Assembly (NCBI GenBank): GCA_033764955.1
Contig: JANRIL010000031.1
Span: 1 to 64,000, forward strand
Length of the DNA stretch: 64,000 bases
DNA from: Cyanobacteriota bacterium
GTDB lineage: Bacteria > Cyanobacteriota > Cyanobacteriia > Thermostichales > Thermostichaceae
Reading direction: 5' to 3'
The position numbers and the translations under genes are program-made. This document shows positions 335 through 49,171 of this stretch, piece by piece. The notes under the pieces were generated by a model. The model had not been told where the DNA came from. It did no database searches and saw only the letters and a list, made by a program, of their open reading frames with translations. Numbering within the stretch: the stretch's first letter is position 1; each line of letters opens with the position of its first letter.

Positions 335-748
335 CACACACTCATCTCCTTAGCTAAAGATCCTGAATAGTCTGAGGTTATTGAGTTAACCCTATCCACT
401 GACACCACTTAAGCCCTAGTACTTTAGATCTAAAATTTTAATCCGTCAAGATCATTTCTCTGTGGCTTAACTGTGCTAACTTAAGCCTGCCAACTTAAGT
501 CCTAGTAGCAAGTGAGCGGAGTCGTTGGTGAAGCCTGTCCAGAGGACTTAAGGAGCCGAAGCCAGCGTACAAGGGGGGCAAAATTTAGAGAATTGTATGA
601 ATCGAGGTGCCCTACTGCCATCCCAATCAACCGAGTTGGCCATGAATTCTTTGGGCTTCAGGTGATTCAAACGATCTAACTTCAGGTAACTTAAGAATCA
701 GTCCTTCAGATATCCACAACTTAGGACGATGGGGTATCAAGTTAAGGC

Positions 749-781
749 TGGAAAGTGGGGCGCGGAGCATCCCACTTTCCA
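749..781 (-). terminator. Hairpin downstream of tRNA-Val (terminator or REP-like)
   Basis: TGGAAAGTGGG (749-759) / CCCACTTTCCA (771-781) perfect 11-bp inverted repeat about 40 nt past the tRNA 3' end. Confidence 0.5.
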
Positions 782-819
782 ACAAAATCTTTCCCGCCTT
801 ATGCAGATACTCCGGACTA

Positions 820-891
820 TGGGCGATATAGGATTTGAACCTATGGCATCCTGCTTGTAAGGCAGGCGCTCTACCGCTGAGCTAATCGCCC
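820..891 (-). tRNA. trnV: tRNA-Val(TAC)
   Basis: Reverse complement GGGCGATTAGCTCAGCGGTAGAGCGCCTGCCTTACAAGCAGGATGCCATAGGTTCAAATCCTATATCGCCCA folds as a cloverleaf, anticodon TAC, CCA not encoded. Confidence 0.97.
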
Positions 892-1097
892 CAGACACTT
901 ATTACATTTAAGCCTCACAAAGGATAACACATTCTTTTTGAGACTGCCTGAGCGGGGTTCGCAATCAACCGAATAAAAATCTGGCAATATCGACTTCTAC
1001 CCCTTCTTTCTTCCCCTTTTGGCTGGCTCTTGCTGAGGCAGCCGAACTCCTGCCGCCAGGAAATTCTGCGAAACGCTAGTTATGCCCTAATCTAGAA

Positions 1098-2888
1098 GTG
1101 ACCTGCCCCCTTCCTTCCAATGCTATGGCTCGGATCCCCTCTCCCTTCGCCTCTTCATCATCGGGATCCCTACCCACTTGGTGGCCCCCTTATCCCAGCG
1201 AACGTCTGCCTTTGTTTCGCCCATTGGGGGCAGCCGCCCTGGAATCCCTCACGGTTTTTGATCAGCAGTTGTTGGGGCTTGACCGCCATTGGGGCTATAT
1301 TTTGGCTCTCGATCCTCGTTCTGGCGATCTGAAGGTGCTCAATCCTCGCTTGGCTCCCCAACTGCGCGATACTTACGCTCTGACCGTTGAGTCTGGATCC
1401 CCTGGCTATCTCTGGGTTGCCAAGGAGCAAGCCCTCTATCGCATCCCTTGGACAGATTTGGGCAGTGCTACGCAATTGGATCCTTATCAGGTGTGTCTAT
1501 TACCCTATGCCATTGAGTCGCTGTCAATGGGTGAGGATGGCCTGTATGCCAGTTGTTTTCAACGGGAAAAGATTTTGAGACTGGATGCCACCTCCGGCAC
1601 AATTGTGCAACAGCTAGCGGCTCCTGGTGTTGGGCGGGAACAAATCCAGGTGGCGGGGGAGGTAATCTGGGTGAGTGATCGCATCGAAGAAACTGTCTAT
1701 GTCTTGGATCGGCAGAGTGGCGAATCGCTGGCGCGCATTTTGACCCCTTTTCCCTCACCAACAGGGTTGGTGTTTTGGCAAAACCAGTGGCTAGTTGCCT
1801 ATGCCACCGAAGAACCCTACATTCGGGATAACCCCAATGATCCAGAGCCTTTGTCAGTCGATTTTCGCAATAAGACCCTGATTGCCCCCCTCTCTCTGCA
1901 TCCCCCCAGCCTGTATCCTCTGCCCGAACCGGCTCCGATTATTCGCTCTGCCCCCGCCTGCTCCCTCCATTTTTTCCCGCAGGTTTTGGGATCCCGTGCT
2001 AGCTATACCCTGTCCAGTGGCTATCGTCTGGAACTGACTTATCTGGAGGAGTTTGCCCAGGAAGAACCTGTGGCGGTTCCCCATCTGGTTTGGAAAATTG
2101 CTCTACCCTGCCATAGCCCTCGCCAAAAGGTTCACTCGGTGAGGTCGATTGGGGATCCCTTTCAGCTTGAGCAGCAGTTTGGGCAGCAGGTGGCGGTATT
2201 TGATCTGGGATCCATTCAGCCGGGGGAGTGCCGCATTTTTGGCTGGAAGGCGGTGATGGATGTTTTTAGCATCAAATATCTGATTACTCCGGCTGATGTG
2301 GAGGACGCCGTTTTGCCGGAGGATTTGAAGGCGCGCTATTTGGTGGATGACGATTATCTGGCGATGGATACAGCAGTGGTGCGGGAAGCCGCCCGCCAAG
2401 CGGTGGGGCGGGAAACCAATCTGCTGCGAAAGATGGCTCGGATCCGCGAGTTTGTCTACGACAAGCTCTCCTATCGGGTGACCCCGCGCATCGAGCCGCC
2501 GGATGTGGTGCTGCAAAATGGCTATGGCTCCTGTGGGGAATATGTGGGTCTGCTGTTGGCGCTAGCCCGTTTGAATGGGATTGTCTGTCGCACCGTCGGT
2601 CGATACAAATGTCCCCCTCACCCCGAACTGAGAGGGATCCCCCTCCTGCCGGAATACAACCATGTTTGGATCGAGTTTTATGTGCCGGGATGGGGCTGGG
2701 TGCCGATGGAGTCAAACCCCGATGACCTGGGAGATCGCCCCTATCCGGAGCGCTATTTTATGGGGATCCCGTGGACTCATGCCGAAATCGCCAAAGGCAT
2801 TCCGTTTGAAACCTGCAATGCGGAGGATGCCTCGATTGGTCAATTGGCGATCAACCATGTGCAGTTTCGCATTTTAGACGAATTGTGA
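1098..2888 (+). CDS. Transglutaminase-like family protein with N-terminal beta-propeller-like region
   Basis: C-terminal GSCGEY and HVWIEFYVPGWGWVPME motifs; N-terminal short repeats (WVSDR, PTGL); start uncertain. Confidence 0.8.
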   Translation: MTCPLPSNAMARIPSPFASSSSGSLPTWWPPYPSERLPLFRPLGAAALESLTVFDQQLLGLDRHWGYILALDPRSGDLKVLNPRLAPQLRDTYALTVESGSPGYLWVAKEQALYRIPWTDLGSATQLDPYQVCLLPYAIESLSMGEDGLYASCFQREKILRLDATSGTIVQQLAAPGVGREQIQVAGEVIWVSDRIEETVYVLDRQSGESLARILTPFPSPTGLVFWQNQWLVAYATEEPYIRDNPNDPEPLSVDFRNKTLIAPLSLHPPSLYPLPEPAPIIRSAPACSLHFFPQVLGSRASYTLSSGYRLELTYLEEFAQEEPVAVPHLVWKIALPCHSPRQKVHSVRSIGDPFQLEQQFGQQVAVFDLGSIQPGECRIFGWKAVMDVFSIKYLITPADVEDAVLPEDLKARYLVDDDYLAMDTAVVREAARQAVGRETNLLRKMARIREFVYDKLSYRVTPRIEPPDVVLQNGYGSCGEYVGLLLALARLNGIVCRTVGRYKCPPHPELRGIPLLPEYNHVWIEFYVPGWGWVPMESNPDDLGDRPYPERYFMGIPWTHAEIAKGIPFETCNAEDASIGQLAINHVQFRILDEL

Positions 2889-43852: not shown

Positions 43853-44054
43853 AATGGGTGCTCACTTGAGGATCCATAAATTTACGCCTATACGCTCAGC
43901 CCTGCCCTTAAAATTGAGCAGGTATGCGGGGCAGACTCCACCCTCTCATCAGGGAGAGAACAGGTCAAGGGGATGCTCCCAGCCTTGATGGCTATCTCTC
44001 AAGACCCATCCCTCAAGGCTCATTGTTCAACGGCAATATCTCACAGTTTTTGGG

Positions 44055-44639
44055 GTGCTTATCGTGACAAGTCTTTCGGATCCGCCAGCTTCTGACCAAC
44101 CCAGCCGCCTCTATTATGCCGTGCGGGGATCCCGGCGGACCAGCGTTTATTTTTGGGCGATCGCTCTGACGGGGGGCAGTCTGGGTTTCACGCTGGCCGG
44201 AATTTCTAGCTATCTGGGTCAAAACCTCTTGCCCTTTACTGAAACCGCCAATCTGATCTTTATTCCCCAAGGGATCACGATGCTGTTTTATGGTCTGGCG
44301 GGATCCCTAGCGGGTCTATATCAGTGGTTGAGCCTCTATTGGGATCTAGGGGGCGGCTATAACCAGTTTGATCGGGTGACGGGCAAGGTGGAAATCCTGC
44401 GGCGCGGTTTCCCCGGCAAGGATCGACAGGTGAAGCTGGTTTATGACTTTGCGGATGTGCAAAATGTGCGGGTGGAGTTGAAGGAGGGCTTAAACCCCAA
44501 ACGAGCCATTTATTTGCGGGTGAAAGGTCGCGGTGATATTCCCCTTACCCCTGTGGGGCAGCCTGCTGCTTTGGCGGATATAGAGAACCAAGCCGCCGAG
44601 ATTGCTCGCTTTTTGAATGTCAGTCTGGAAGGAATTTAA
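44055..44639 (+). CDS. ycf4: Photosystem I assembly protein Ycf4
   Basis: GSRR.S.YFWA, PQGITMLFYG, GGGYNQFD, GFPGK.R, EGLNP.R, PLT; start uncertain. Confidence 0.95.
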   Translation: MLIVTSLSDPPASDQPSRLYYAVRGSRRTSVYFWAIALTGGSLGFTLAGISSYLGQNLLPFTETANLIFIPQGITMLFYGLAGSLAGLYQWLSLYWDLGGGYNQFDRVTGKVEILRRGFPGKDRQVKLVYDFADVQNVRVELKEGLNPKRAIYLRVKGRGDIPLTPVGQPAALADIENQAAEIARFLNVSLEGI

Positions 44640-44796
44640 GGTTGGGTTGCCCCAGGATCCCGAGTCTTGAGGGGGGGAGGAAGTCTGGGTTAAGAGGAGG
44701 CAAGAGTTAAGGGAGCGTTATTCTGGGAGAGGTGAGGGATCCCTCACCATATCTGAGACTATTTGAGAACACCTGAGTTTGATATCTCAGGCTGTA

Positions 44797-44844
44797 TGGA
44801 CGGGATCTTTTATCCTTCACGTCCACTGCTGCGAATGGTTAGGA
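44797..44844 (-). other. Degenerate (left-half) integron attC-like site
   Basis: Minus strand TCCTAAC-CATT-CGCAGCAG-TGGACG...CGTCCA; the outer right arm and GTT core are missing. Confidence 0.45.
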
Positions 44845-44903
44845 AACGCAGACCCAGACAAGCCACCTCACTCACCTAGAACATTCTTGCCTGGGGATCC
44901 GAA

Positions 44904-44990
44904 CCCTAACGTTCGCGCTCGCCGGACGCAGATAATATTTGCAGATCAGCCAACCATTTAGGACGTTCCGGTGCAGCGCGGTTGTTAGCC
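44904..44990 (-). other. Integron attC recombination site
   Basis: Minus strand GGCTAAC AAC CGCGCTGCACCGGAACG...CGTCCGGCGAGCGCG AAC GTTAGGG: R'' and R' cores, complementary L arms with unpaired bases, 87 bp, 6 nt after the stop of the upstream ORF. Confidence 0.8.
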
Positions 44991-45873
44991 TGCTGATCAC
45001 CGCATCCTTGCATACATACTCTCAACCTCTTTATCATATATTTTTGACAAGACACTTTTGGGAGAAGCTAGTTCTACAAGACTACGTACATCAATAAGTA
45101 ATTCTCCAGAATCTCTCAAAAAAAAACCAACAGGAATTTTTGGAAAATTCTTATCATTCACGAAGATCATAAAACGATGCCCCCAAATCATAAAGCTTTG
45201 AACAGTGAATATTTGATCGTATTTCCTAGGGGGAAATCCTATGATCATGCCTGGATGAAAAACTTTATCAAGTTCATATCTCGAAACCATAATTGGATAG
45301 TTTTTTTCGCCTGGAACATCCTCATCAAATAACTTTTGTCTTAATTTCTCTTCATAAATACCCAAGCTATATGACTCAAAGAATGGGTCAGATGTTACAG
45401 ACATCCGCCACAAAATAGATAGAATTGCTAACTTAAATTCTTTGTACCAAATACCTTCGACCTTGAAGAGGTTTTCACCTATATGGTTTATGGTTAAAAA
45501 TTCACTCTTTTGATTCCCAATATCAATTAAATCTCTTTTTAGAGCTGACTCTCGTTTAGAAAATTTTTGCTCGCAACCTCCACAAAGCAATTTTTCTCGA
45601 AAACCTTTTCGAATAAATTTGAGTTCGGAATACTCCATAGAGATAGGCACTGCTCTATGTCTTTTATCATAAACACCTTCGTAAAATGCTTCTGATATGA
45701 TGTGAGATTCTCTCAAGTCATGTTTTTGTTGACAAAGCTTACAAACCATCATTTAGCTGTTTAACTCAATAATGCAGAACAGTTTATTTGTTTTTATAGT
45801 ATGGCTGAACTAAATCTGGGTACTCACTGATAACATTTAGGGACTGTCCTTATCCTGAGACAAAGCAGGCTAA
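44910..45873 (-). mobile_element. Integron gene cassette without integrase in the window (CALIN/solo cassette)
   Basis: Begins G|TTAGCCTGCT at 45874 (minus strand), perfectly complementary to AGCAGGCTAAC at the attC R''; single AT-rich ORF. Confidence 0.72.
44997..45752 (-). CDS. HNH endonuclease-like zinc-binding protein (cassette cargo)
   Basis: CKLC..SHII..LLCGGCEQKF pattern; very AT-rich. Confidence 0.6.
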   Translation of the reverse strand: MMVCKLCQQKHDLRESHIISEAFYEGVYDKRHRAVPISMEYSELKFIRKGFREKLLCGGCEQKFSKRESALKRDLIDIGNQKSEFLTINHIGENLFKVEGIWYKEFKLAILSILWRMSVTSDPFFESYSLGIYEEKLRQKLFDEDVPGEKNYPIMVSRYELDKVFHPGMIIGFPPRKYDQIFTVQSFMIWGHRFMIFVNDKNFPKIPVGFFLRDSGELLIDVRSLVELASPKSVLSKIYDKEVESMYARMR

Positions 45874-45940
45874 CAATTCCATAAGCTGCTACACCACTAC
45901 CCCTAGTGTGAGATTTTCACTAAATTTTCATAGATCACGA

Positions 45941-45967
45941 GAAAACTGGGGAGAGTCGTTTTCCCCA
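45941..45967 (-). terminator. Probable intrinsic terminator
   Basis: Minus strand TGGGGAAA-ACGAC-TCTCCCCA-GTTTTC downstream of the truncated glutaredoxin gene. Confidence 0.4.
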
Positions 45968-46036
45968 ATCCCTTATTTCCCTGATCGGGATGACTCCTCT
46001 ACCTGCACTTGTCCATGTCGGACATGATGCCGAGTT

Positions 46037-46198
46037 TCAGTGGGATCCCAGCTTGATGTCGGTAAACGGGATCCCTTTTTCGGTCAAGAGGTTGACGGCT
46101 CGCAGCCCCCAAGGACATTCATGGTCAGGCGTGGACATCCGATAAAGTTTTACCGTTGATCCAGTCGTTAAGGGGAAGGGGGTGATCAGAGTGGTCAT
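46037..46198 (-). pseudogene. Truncated glutaredoxin-domain (glutaredoxin/MauE-DoxX type) gene
   Basis: MTTLITPFPLTTGSTVKLYRMSTPDHECPWGLRAVNLLTEKGIPFTDIKLGSH*; AAGGAG RBS; ends at GGGATCCC 46042-46049. Confidence 0.7.
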
Positions 46199-46238
46199 GA
46201 GGTCGTCTCCTTAGACATCGGCTTTTGTTGATAAACCA

Positions 46239-46270
46239 ACCCTAGACGCTGTCGTAGACTCTAGAGTCAA
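46239..46270 (-). promoter_or_regulatory. MerR-type promoter for the glutaredoxin fragment
   Basis: TTGACT-N20-TAGGGT with imperfect dyad in the spacer. Confidence 0.65.
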
Positions 46271-46317
46271 GCGAAAAATGGCTTGAACCGCGGACAATAA
46301 TTTCCTTGGCTCATGGT

Positions 46318-46349
46318 TTGACCCTCTACCCGACTAGAGGGTTTATGCC
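46318..46349 (+). promoter_or_regulatory. MerR-type promoter/operator, divergent
   Basis: TTGACC-N20-TATGCC with perfect dyad ACCCTCTA-N6-TAGAGGGT (46321-46342). Confidence 0.75.
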
Positions 46350-46682
46350 GGATAGACTGCGTGGAAAATTCGCCATGACGGTAACAGCCCTCTTAAGTGG
46401 CTACAGTAAACAGTTCTGAACAGTTAATTTGCCGAAACATACCCAATTGGCAGAAATTAAATCAACGATTTAGACTTGCAATAGAGCACTTTAATCTAGC
46501 TTCAGGGAAGAGCTGTTCGATACAGCATCATGGTACAACTGGTTGCAGGCATGAAGCTGATTCTGCTAGGGTTTGCTGGTCTGTTTGCCTGAATCCAAAA
46601 TCGAACTGAACCCATTAATCTGAGAGAAAGTACAGCAGTTCAGGCTCTCTCATAAACTGTAGTAACCCGTGAGAATCATCCA

Positions 46683-48719
46683 TTGCGAGATCTTTTAGCC
46701 CCGCTACTGCCACCAGAACCGATTACGGATCCGGTCGCAATTTTTCTTGTCATCATCGCAATTATGCTGGTGGCCCCGTTGCTATTCGAGCGGTTTCGAT
46801 TGCCTGGTATTGTTGGTTTAATCCTGGCAGGAGTCGTGGTCGGACCGCATGGCTTTGGGGTTTTAGAGCGGGATAGCACGATTGTCCTCCTGGGGACCGT
46901 TGGACTGCTGTTTCTGATGTTTATGGCGGGGTTAGAAACCAGTCTGGATGACTTGAAATACAACGCTGATAAAGCCGTGATTTTTGGTTTGGCAACCTTT
47001 GCGGTGCCAATGGCGCTGGGTGTGGCAGCCATGATGCTGTTGGGCTATTCCTTCCTAGCTGCTGTTTTAGTGGCTTCCTGCTTTGCCTCGCATACCTTGC
47101 TGGCATTACCGATCGTTAGCAAACTGGGAATTATGCGATCGCAGGCTGTCACCGCTACCCTTGGTGGCACCTTAATTACGAATGTTTTAGCGTTGCTAGT
47201 ACTAGCAGTTGTCGTTAGAGCACATCAAGGAAATCTCACCCTCAGCTTTTGGCTGTTTCTAATTCCCTCTCTCAGCGTCTACACTGTGGCAACCCTCTGG
47301 GGTGTGCCTAGACTGGGGCGTTGGTTTTTCCGGCGCTTTGGGCATGACGAGGGTGCTGAGTTTACCTTTGTGGTCGCAGCGTTGTTTGTGGTGTCCTACG
47401 TTGCCAAACTGATTGAAATCGAACCCATCATCGGTGCATTTCTAGCAGGAATTGCAATTACTCAACTGATTCCCCAGATGAGTCCATTGATGAATCGAAT
47501 TCAATTTATTGGTAACACGCTGTTTGTGCCATTCTTCTTGATCTCTGTGGGGATGCTGGTCAATCCCTTGATTCTGTTTCAAGAACCTCGATCGCTGCTC
47601 ATCTCTGTCGTCATGGTGGGAGTAGCGCTGATTGCCAAGCTAGTCCCTGCCTGGGGTTCCAGCAAATTATTTCGCTTTGATTTCTCCAATATGATGGTCA
47701 TGTTTGGGCTATCCGTTGCCCAGGCTGCGTCAACCCTGGCAGCAATTACTGTTGCCTACAACATCAAGCTGGTGGATCAGCTCACGGTCAATGGCACGAT
47801 CGCTATGATTCTGGTGACCTGTCTTGCCTCTCCCTGGATCACAGACCGCTGGGGGCAGAAAGTGAACTCTAGTCCTACCCCTAGCTATCCATTGCAATTG
47901 GCTGATCCGGCTCATGCTCCTTCTCAGTATCGAATTTTGGTACCCATTGCAAATCCCAGTACGGAAGATAACCTGCTGCAACTTGCCTTGATTTTGGCAA
48001 AGAGTACCCATGGAATCTTGTTGCCGTTGCATGTATTGATCGACACCCATGGACCTATTTCAACTGAAGCCAAACTGCACCAAGAGCGGCTCTTGGCGGC
48101 GGCTGAAACGATTGCTCATGCTGCTGTGACTGCTGTGGAGCCGATCAGTCGGGTCGATGACTCAATTGATAAAGGTATTTTGAGAACAGCCCAAGAACGC
48201 AACGCTAACCTGATTATTTGTGGCTGGAAAGGGCATTCAAGCTATCAAGATAATTTCTTCGGCAGCGTCATCGATAACATTACTCGTCAGACTCCTGTTC
48301 CGATCCTGATTACTCGCTTTACTCACCCGATTCAGTCAACTCGGCGACTCTTTTTAACTATCTCCAATAGTGAAGCGACAATGCCCAGTTTCTGGCGAGC
48401 CCTGAGGCTTATGCAAACACTGGCTACTGAACTAAAAGCGTCTCTACAGATCTTGCAGGTTCTCCCGAATGCTCACTCAGCCAATGCAGCTCACGCCATT
48501 TCTAACTTAAGTGAGGAGGTGCCAGTTCAATACGTGCGCGGCAACTTTGTGAATCAAGTATCCCGCATTCTAGAGATAGACGATCTGCTGGTCTTAACCC
48601 ATCATTCCCGTTCAGAACCTTTCGGTATCCCCACGGTGGGAGCACTGCCCACAGCGATCGCCCATCAGCATCCCACCATCTCGATGATCATTGCCCATTT
48701 TCCTCAGCAGCGGATTTAG
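46683..48719 (+). CDS. CPA2 cation:proton antiporter with C-terminal USP-like domains
   Basis: LPGIVGLILAG, LMFMAGLET, ASHTLLA, IIGAFLAG, PFFLISVG; RILVPIANP USP start. Confidence 0.9.
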   Translation: MRDLLAPLLPPEPITDPVAIFLVIIAIMLVAPLLFERFRLPGIVGLILAGVVVGPHGFGVLERDSTIVLLGTVGLLFLMFMAGLETSLDDLKYNADKAVIFGLATFAVPMALGVAAMMLLGYSFLAAVLVASCFASHTLLALPIVSKLGIMRSQAVTATLGGTLITNVLALLVLAVVVRAHQGNLTLSFWLFLIPSLSVYTVATLWGVPRLGRWFFRRFGHDEGAEFTFVVAALFVVSYVAKLIEIEPIIGAFLAGIAITQLIPQMSPLMNRIQFIGNTLFVPFFLISVGMLVNPLILFQEPRSLLISVVMVGVALIAKLVPAWGSSKLFRFDFSNMMVMFGLSVAQAASTLAAITVAYNIKLVDQLTVNGTIAMILVTCLASPWITDRWGQKVNSSPTPSYPLQLADPAHAPSQYRILVPIANPSTEDNLLQLALILAKSTHGILLPLHVLIDTHGPISTEAKLHQERLLAAAETIAHAAVTAVEPISRVDDSIDKGILRTAQERNANLIICGWKGHSSYQDNFFGSVIDNITRQTPVPILITRFTHPIQSTRRLFLTISNSEATMPSFWRALRLMQTLATELKASLQILQVLPNAHSANAAHAISNLSEEVPVQYVRGNFVNQVSRILEIDDLLVLTHHSRSEPFGIPTVGALPTAIAHQHPTISMIIAHFPQQRI

Positions 48720-48721
48720 CT

Positions 48722-49171
48722 ATGTTAAAGATCGGAGATATTGCCAAACAAACTGGGGTTAGCGTTGGTACGTTACCCTACTACTAGGCTCAAAAACTAC
48801 TCCATGCTCCTGAACGCAGGAAAAATGGCTATCACTACTACGGCACAGAGACTCTAGAACAGGTGCAATTTATTAAGAAAGCCCAATCTCTAGGATTTTC
48901 TTTAGAGGAAATCCGTCATATCCTTGAGGTGAAATTTTCTGGTGAGAAACCCTGTGAACTGGTACAAGATTTGCTGGCAGAGAAGATTAACCAATTAGAA
49001 AATCAGATCCAACGGATGATCCTATTCAAGACTGAGCTAGAAGGGTATCGAGATCTGTGGGGAAAAACTCCTGCTGACCAAGAACTTTCTCGTGAAATCT
49101 GTCCCTTAGTCGCCAGTGTTCCTTTGAGAGCCAGTGTTGAATCTCTCACACCTGTATTTCAGTCTATCTAA
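48722..49171 (+). pseudogene. MerR-family heavy-metal regulator with in-frame stop
   Basis: MLKIGDIAKQTGVSVGTLPYY*AQKLL..NGYHYY..QVQFIKKAQSLGFSLEEI..PC..ICP; TAG at 48785-48787 replaces the Glu of TLRYYE. Confidence 0.85.

Follow-up and report, generated by a model that had tools for sequence, protein, structure and literature searches.

In a stretch of 64,000 nt from the genome of a Cyanobacteriota bacterium (GCA_033764955.1, contig JANRIL010000031.1, positions 1 to 64,000), which we refer to as the window, an AT-rich open reading frame (ORF) is located downstream of ycf4 and is directly followed by an imperfect palindrome. The original prediction, made from the letters of this stretch, had read both together as an integron gene cassette of 964 bp with a complete recombination site (attC), which had been acquired and placed next to ycf4 by an integron integrase (IntI) acting in trans. 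The genome (G000) comprises 48 contigs with 3.8 Mb and is 89% complete, and the window lies on contig C1 (74.5 kb); further contigs of this genome are also denoted by C, other genomes by G and the loci examined by L. As predicted, the ORF encodes 251 aa and its stop codon TGA is separated by 6 nt from the sequence GGCTAAC, with which the palindrome begins. The GC content of the ORF is 0.34 (0.32–0.36 when calculated over 200 nt at a time) versus about 0.50–0.55 in the flanks and about 0.51 genome-wide. On the minus strand the flank just before the cassette ends with GGAATTG. The inverted repeat that had been described around the ORF is indeed perfect, but its arms are 13 bp and not 11 bp long, whereas the length of 964 bp given for the cassette is found when counting from the T after G 45874 down to G 44910. 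The positions of all features are listed in Table 1.

Table 1: Features of the cassette and its surroundings next to ycf4 (positions in the window).
Feature	Position	Strand	Remark
Integron gene cassette, 964 bp	44910..45873	minus	Starts with the TT after the G of the 5' crossover (45874), ends with the G of R' (44910)
attC site, 87 nt	44904..44990	minus	Match of the covariance model
Cassette ORF, 251 aa	44997..45752	minus	ATG at 45752, TGA stop at 44999-44997
Cassette leader, 121 nt	45753..45873	minus	First bases are TTAGCCTGCT, the family-typical 5' end of a cassette
Arm of the 13-bp inverted repeat, TTGTTAGCCTGCT	44982..44994		Covers R'' and its outward extension
Partner arm of the 13-bp inverted repeat	45864..45876		100% complementary; marks the 5' crossover with G at 45874
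ycf4, host gene left of the cassette	44055..44639	plus	PF02392, E 5.8e-74
62-nt repeat	44675..44736	plus	Sole other copy at C30:2052-2114 (90% identity), after an intI-linked cassette
165-nt flank 5' of the cassette	45877..46041		blastn against the genome finds only the flank itself; without attC (best model score 6.9 bits)
Truncated paralogue of a gene for a glutaredoxin-domain membrane protein, with divergent promoter region	46042..46394	minus	84% identical to C11:148851-149202

Sites of the attC type contain the core sites R'' (consensus RYYYAAC) and R' (consensus GTTRRRY). In the canonical form L'' is longer than L', and the extra unpaired bases are distributed asymmetrically and belong to the R''-L'' side. 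The palindrome next to the ORF contains GGCTAAC as R'' (44990–44984) and GTTAGGG as R' (44910–44904), each of them fitting six of the seven consensus positions. Its R''-L'' arm beside the ORF carries one bulged G and one bulged A, in agreement with the asymmetry expected for attC. This layout of R'', AA, a 6-bp stem, the bulged G, a second stem, the bulged A, a variable loop and R' is shared with a family of palindromes of 85–90 nt, which a crude scan had first revealed beside both integrase genes (intI) of the genome. Using 12 other sites of the genome, seven of them from the two arrays beside intI, we built our own covariance model (R1), from which the site in the window and its closest relative were left out. 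The consensus fold of the family comprises 19 pairs, ten of them with compensatory changes in the alignment of the 12 sites, and the bulged G and the bulged A in the 5' arm are present in all 12. The minus strand of the window at 44904–44990 was matched by this model with 63.5 bits (E 3.5e-13) and the match is strand-specific, as the plus strand at the same position reached only 12 bits; the second-best match anywhere in the window had 13.4 bits. Alignment and model thus agree on an imperfect palindrome of 87 bp with R'', R' and unpaired bases in the L arms, and the covariance-model check bears out the complete attC of the original prediction. The co-oriented arrays beside intI and the attI shared by two complete integrons show that the integrons of this organism use the 87-nt palindrome family as their attC; the site in the window belongs to this family. 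The attC most similar to the one in the window (C7:3469–3555, 85% identity) is the last of a short array at the start of a contig (locus L019, C7:1–3600); the cassette there contains two ORFs on the opposite strand encoding 396 aa and 344 aa. From reading the sequence we take the 344-aa product to be ParA-like, and the ORF after this array presumably encodes an ABC-transporter permease.

Two full-length intI genes were detected in the genome, C9:19–960 with 463 bits and C38:63588–64529 with 451 bits (TIGR02249, cut-off 265), along with several intI fragments on further contigs. The statement of the original prediction that there is no integrase is therefore true for the window and for contig C1, in which the TIGR02249 search gave no intI match, but not for the genome, and the integrase that had been postulated to act in trans is available twice, each time together with attI and an array. 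In the C9 integron intI is encoded on the minus strand and followed by seven attC matches on the plus strand, in the C38 integron three attC matches on the minus strand lie ahead of intI on the plus strand, and in both cases the attC matches share one orientation and lead away from intI. The intI-proximal regions of both integrons share about 210 nt ending in TAG|TTAG, which is the attI crossover and after which the two sequences diverge. Both intI genes appear to be intact and are located in trans to the cassette. The model matched 56 sites in the genome (E<0.001), which form 36 groups when joined at ≤4 kb, namely 11 clusters of 2–7 sites and 25 single sites. Of these 25, 18 are at least 5 kb away from a contig end and lack any intI fragment within 6 kb, so that attC sites are commonly placed solo in this genome. 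When 40 relatives were included, the attC family was matched in 32 of the 41 genomes and intI exceeded the cut-off in 20 of them; strong attC matches near intI and on the opposite strand to it were found in relatives such as G014, G003, G034, G039 and G005. Not counting our own genome, 31 of the 40 contain attC matches (E up to 0.001) with a maximum of 92 in G040, and in several complete genomes, for example G035 and G014, the matches are spread over megabases.

The boundaries of the cassette became visible through a second copy. Relatives of the ORF were sought in one genome per species and the best 80 of 106 loci were examined, among which the best-matching one (L061) belongs to a metagenome-assembled genome (MAG) of an Oscillatoriales cyanobacterium (G041). 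The protein encoded there is 84% identical and is followed by an attC with 61.3 bits. At the nucleotide level both loci are 89% identical over 967 nt (window 44908–45874), on which genome searches in both directions agree. In the DNA alignment the homology opens exactly at GTTAGCCTGCT and closes at the GTT of R', both flanks being unrelated, and the leader is conserved in the second copy as well. The homology thus begins and ends exactly at two GTT triplets, in line with the G|TT boundaries that had been predicted, and these triplets probably represent the crossover points that delimit the mobile unit. The two attC sites are identical in 80 of 87 positions, and of the seven differences three concern the four bases that come after the GTT of R'. 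A difference between the copies in these four bases is expected if they are derived from the respective target and would be the signature of cutting and joining at G|TT. In contrast to the 89% identity of the cassette, the housekeeping DNA of the two hosts shows identities of 65% (ycf4) and 64% (the RNase Z-like gene of the Lactamase_B family), from which it follows that the cassette is much younger than the split of its hosts. Together with the GC content of 0.34 this shows that the cassette is foreign and mobile between genera, as implied by the original prediction of an acquired element. In G041 six attC matches are located on six different contigs and no intI exceeds the cut-off in this MAG.

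With nothing else above 13.4 bits, the attC next to ycf4 is the only one in the window. A second attC was sought in 184 nt that comprise the 5' end of the cassette and the sequence upstream of it (45862–46045), but the best candidate (plus strand, 45868–45964) had a score of 6.9 bits and was rejected. The cassette in L061 is likewise alone in its locus of 5.7 kb, with the RNase Z-like gene on one side and unrelated ORFs on the other. The element next to ycf4 therefore fits the definition of a single attC site lacking an integron integrase (SALIN), that is one attC and one coding sequence in whose vicinity neither a further att site nor intI lies.

The explanation that we favour, with a probability of about 0.78, is that a single cassette was inserted by IntI in trans at a G|TT site that is not an att site, following the route described as attC × attG. 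IntI from elsewhere in the genome (C9 or C38), or from a former donor, would have excised the cassette as a circle, and its folded attC would then have recombined with a double-stranded chromosomal G|TT site downstream of ycf4. In this process TTAGCCTGCT as the cassette's own sequence would stay at the 5' end, and the R' at the 3' end would become a hybrid composed of the G of the cassette and TTAGGG of the target. What we infer from these data is that IntI was the catalyst, what kind of site the target was, when the insertion took place and whether the cassette can still be excised.

The gene on the left side had been named correctly as ycf4, while the ppa gene proposed for the other side was not seen there. 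What lies on the right side instead is the glutaredoxin-like fragment of a truncated gene, a MerR-like gene that is split, and a gene with Na/H-exchanger and Usp domains. The homology of the fragment and its promoter region (46042–46394) to C11 begins exactly at a GGGATCCC palindrome at 46042, and while the intact gene on C11 encodes a glutaredoxin-domain membrane protein of 281 aa, the copy in the window ends after 53 codons; its glutaredoxin match is weak and below the gathering cut-off (PF00462, E 0.0021, 18.7 bits versus 22.9). A segment of 2330 bp (46395–48724), which carries the Na_H_Exchanger and Usp gene (46683..48719) and in which no attC match was found, splits the MerR-like gene. 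This gene is unbroken in the paralogous region (C11:149201/149202), and its C-terminal part resumes in the window at 48725 with 90% identity.

Several observations weigh against an insertion by IntI at an ordinary G|TT site. The right-hand neighbourhood is rearranged, with the truncated paralogue starting at 46042 and the 2330-bp insertion in the MerR-like gene, and it is possible that the cassette was translocated by other means. An empty site was not found: a DNA search of the 40 relatives gave matches to ycf4 (up to 73% nucleotide identity) and to attC only, with the ORF not covered by any of the matches listed, and a metagenome scan with Ycf4 resulted in 19 loci; with at most 78% identity of the Ycf4 protein, both sets are too distant. 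The synteny downstream of ycf4 is lost in the genome and metagenome loci that were compared. In R'' of the cassette the second position is a G where the consensus RYYYAAC has a Y. The reconstructed target GTTAGGG is itself a near-consensus R' core with six of seven positions of GTTRRRY, and immediately 5' of the cassette lie 11 nt (TTATGGAATTG) of which 10 agree with the first half of a 22-nt motif. As this motif directly follows four other attC sites, the cassette may have landed in a sequence of the att-like or array-end type and not in ordinary DNA. Furthermore, the original prediction had interpreted the complementarity between the 5' end of the cassette and R'' as the cassette's own remainder. 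The complementarity is present, but part of it is a conserved extension of the attC stem throughout the family and not the history of this cassette alone: many attC sites of this genome carry CAGC[AC]RGCTAAC, many cassettes begin with GTTAGCYKGCT, and GTTAGCCTGCTT of the leader start also occurs after the attC at C11:180401. Finally, the folding energy of the single-stranded palindrome (a stretch of 106 nt) is no better than that of shuffled sequences (z −0.49 and −0.99).

[quoted passage not shown] The 11 small attC clusters and the several intI fragments on other contigs, the resemblance of the 11 nt before the cassette to the start of the motif following four other attC sites, and the 62-nt repeat with its only other copy after the intI-linked C30 cassette all speak for such a remnant of an array. 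However, neither a second attC nor any trace of intI is present in the window or on contig C1, the cassette is solo in G041 too and has different flanks there, and the 18 internal ones among the 25 single attC sites indicate that solo placement is frequent in this genome anyway, so that we regard a stranded array remnant as unlikely. Far less probable still, and close to negligible, is an ordinary gene acquired horizontally, with a palindrome behind it that is due to chance, resembles a terminator or belongs to another family of cyanobacterial hairpin repeats. The unremarkable folding energy of the palindrome would be compatible with this, and no matching family was found in Rfam, since all matches within 44000–47000 were far below the gathering score. 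A palindrome without any relation to integrons would be hard to reconcile with a strand-specific score of 63.5 bits against a model derived from sites in arrays beside intI and attI, with a unit of homology between two genomes that reaches exactly from GTT to GTT, and with relatives of the ORF in other phyla that are also followed by attC matches.

The 22-nt motif (TTATCGAATTGATGACAGACC, with variants) occurs at C4:15558, C11:33787, C27:18906 and C27:112545, each time directly after the G of R' of an attC, and 45874–45884 of the window can be compared to it. It is also present at C7:103492, C23:45267 and C38:64786, the C38 copy being located about 250 nt past the intI stop codon and in opposite orientation relative to the array, and the sequence beyond the motif is different at each site. 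The idea of the motif being a derivative of attI was rejected, as the attI common to C9 and C38 is a different sequence. It could represent a preferred landing site, a marker of the array end or a terminal repeat. Taking these observations together with the attC-mediated insertion that we favour, one might speculate that the integron works largely as a genome-wide disperser in this cyanobacterial lineage, with IntI routinely dropping single cassettes at non-att G|TT sites across the chromosome (compare the 18 internal ones among the 25 single attC sites), cassettes crossing between genera, and the 22-nt sequence serving either as a natural attG hotspot, where cassettes land by preference, or as the repeat at the end of some unit by which whole integrons are moved. 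We consider this a tentative idea that is rather less likely to be true than false.

SALINs and the insertion of cassettes at attG sites with the consensus 5'-GWT-3' are the subject of a preprint (bioRxiv 10.1101/2022.09.11.507474), whose experiments in E. coli relied on integrases of class 1, and also on those of classes 2 and 3, and which includes an IntegronFinder census with 3400 SALINs. The G|TT crossover next to ycf4 fits this consensus. Compared to what the preprint describes, the cassette next to ycf4 is similar in consisting of one ORF and one attC with no att site or intI nearby, in its G|TT crossover, and in being co-oriented and downstream of a retained host promoter region; inserted cassettes are stated there to be expressible when they are near bacterial promoters. 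Unlike in the E. coli work the host is a cyanobacterium with intI genes of its own and an attC family of 87 nt, and the junctions are natural ones that were set by the comparison of two genomes. In addition, attG sites are described there as very different from att sites, whereas the target next to ycf4 is R'-like (GTTAGGG). Regarding CALINs, the same attC family forms 11 clusters in our genome, two of which are located beside a full-length intI, and the single attC next to ycf4 is below the CALIN threshold of two sites in IntegronFinder 2.0. In the library searched, only passing mentions of cyanobacterial integrons and no dedicated paper were found: PMC4889954 mentions CALINs, single attC sites and the occurrence of integrons in Cyanobacteria, and PMC9024848 the handling of single attC sites.

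The route by which the cassette is proposed to have spread is already known biology, and the picture of integrons is not changed by it. Solo cassettes have been counted in thousands by IntegronFinder, and what is known about their natural origin comes mostly from E. coli and clinical integrases. The cassette next to ycf4 adds a natural case with base-precise boundaries, found in a phototroph with two apparently intact integrases, attI and arrays. As all these components are native, a test of attC × attG insertion and excision should be feasible in the native host. Moreover, one family of 87-nt attC sites is widespread across the cyanobacterial class. A classical case of a resistance cassette at a secondary site is reportedly aadB in RSF1010 (Recchia and Hall 1995). 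Both reportedly have in common the precise insertion of a single cassette outside an integron at a GTT-type core, but RSF1010 is a plasmid and aadB an antibiotic resistance gene, whereas the cassette next to ycf4 is chromosomal and carries another gene in a photosynthetic bacterium.

Within its first 61 residues the protein encoded by the cassette contains the conserved residues CxxC ... SH ... CxxCE. Searches of Pfam (E up to 1), of PADLOC and of NCBIfam assigned it to no family. Among 69 relatives in a large protein collection one has a functional name, ‘HNH endonuclease’ in UniRef, and this is the most distant match. Two of 27 relatives faintly touch Pfam HNH_5 (best E 0.025), and in a language-model atlas the neighbour clusters are hypothetical apart from one named HNH endonuclease 5, with a score of 0.97 that can be taken as a lead only. 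A profile search of PDB sequences gave a single match at chance level (E 0.029). The whole protein was modelled with AlphaFold2 from 27 sequences with high confidence (predicted local distance difference test, pLDDT, 93.4; predicted template modelling score, pTM, 0.91). When this model was used for a fold search in the PDB, Foldseek had no match up to an E of 0.001, and the best Z reached with VIA-align was 3.2. In BFVD one uncharacterised Myoviridae protein was found (E 9.5e-10, template modelling score 0.63), and three IMG/VR contigs encode relatives that are 28–32% identical. From these hints we would guess, with considerable doubt, that the product is an HNH-like enzyme acting on nucleic acids, with a zinc ribbon and an additional C-terminal domain, and possibly has a nuclease-type role in defence or as an accessory. 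Phage defence as the purpose of cassettes whose function is unknown is an idea put forward in the abstract of another preprint (bioRxiv 10.1101/2024.07.02.601719).

A dN/dS of 0.30 in comparison to the L061 copy indicates that the ORF is maintained under purifying selection. An attC match (E<0.01) follows 10–80 nt past the protein match at five of the 80 loci (L061, L062, L080, L085 and L138), and these attC-followed relatives span several phyla, including a Desulfobacteraceae MAG and a Burkholderiales MAG. The ORF is thus a travelling cassette gene. The 121-nt leader was searched for a sigma-70-like site with a negative result. Upstream of the ORF and in the same orientation lies the truncated glutaredoxin-like fragment (46198–46037, minus strand), the promoter region of which is retained (46200–46394), and transcription from there into the ORF by read-through is conceivable. 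With a confidently predicted structure that has no solved relative, and with a recurrence in cassettes of several phyla and in a few phage contigs, the cassette protein is a candidate for functional screens.

The locus with the other copy of the 62-nt repeat (L028, C30:1–2200) contains an N-terminal intI fragment (646..894, minus strand) and then an ORF of 273 aa (1079..1900) with CxxC..DH..CxxCN. After it come a weak attC (1916–2008, 25.8 bits), the 22-nt motif in a degenerate form and the 62-nt repeat. A comparison of the 273-aa ORF with the ORF in the window gave an E of 1.6 in BLASTP and a probability of 9% in hhalign. From reading its translation, we take the last ORF of the C30 locus to encode a GTPase of the signal recognition particle (ffh-like).

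The original prediction had also pointed out that GGATCC is missing from the cassette. Indeed no GGATCC is present between 44895 and 46043, although the Poisson probability of finding none in 964 nt is still about 0.07 at the rate of 2.77 per kb in the window. The gap without GGATCC is 1148 nt long and thereby the seventh longest of 176 in the window, and taken on its own the absence is weak support for the cassette. The highly iterated palindrome of this genome is GGGATCCC with 4915 copies (1.29 per kb), and GCGATCGC, the one usual in cyanobacteria, is rare here (109 copies).

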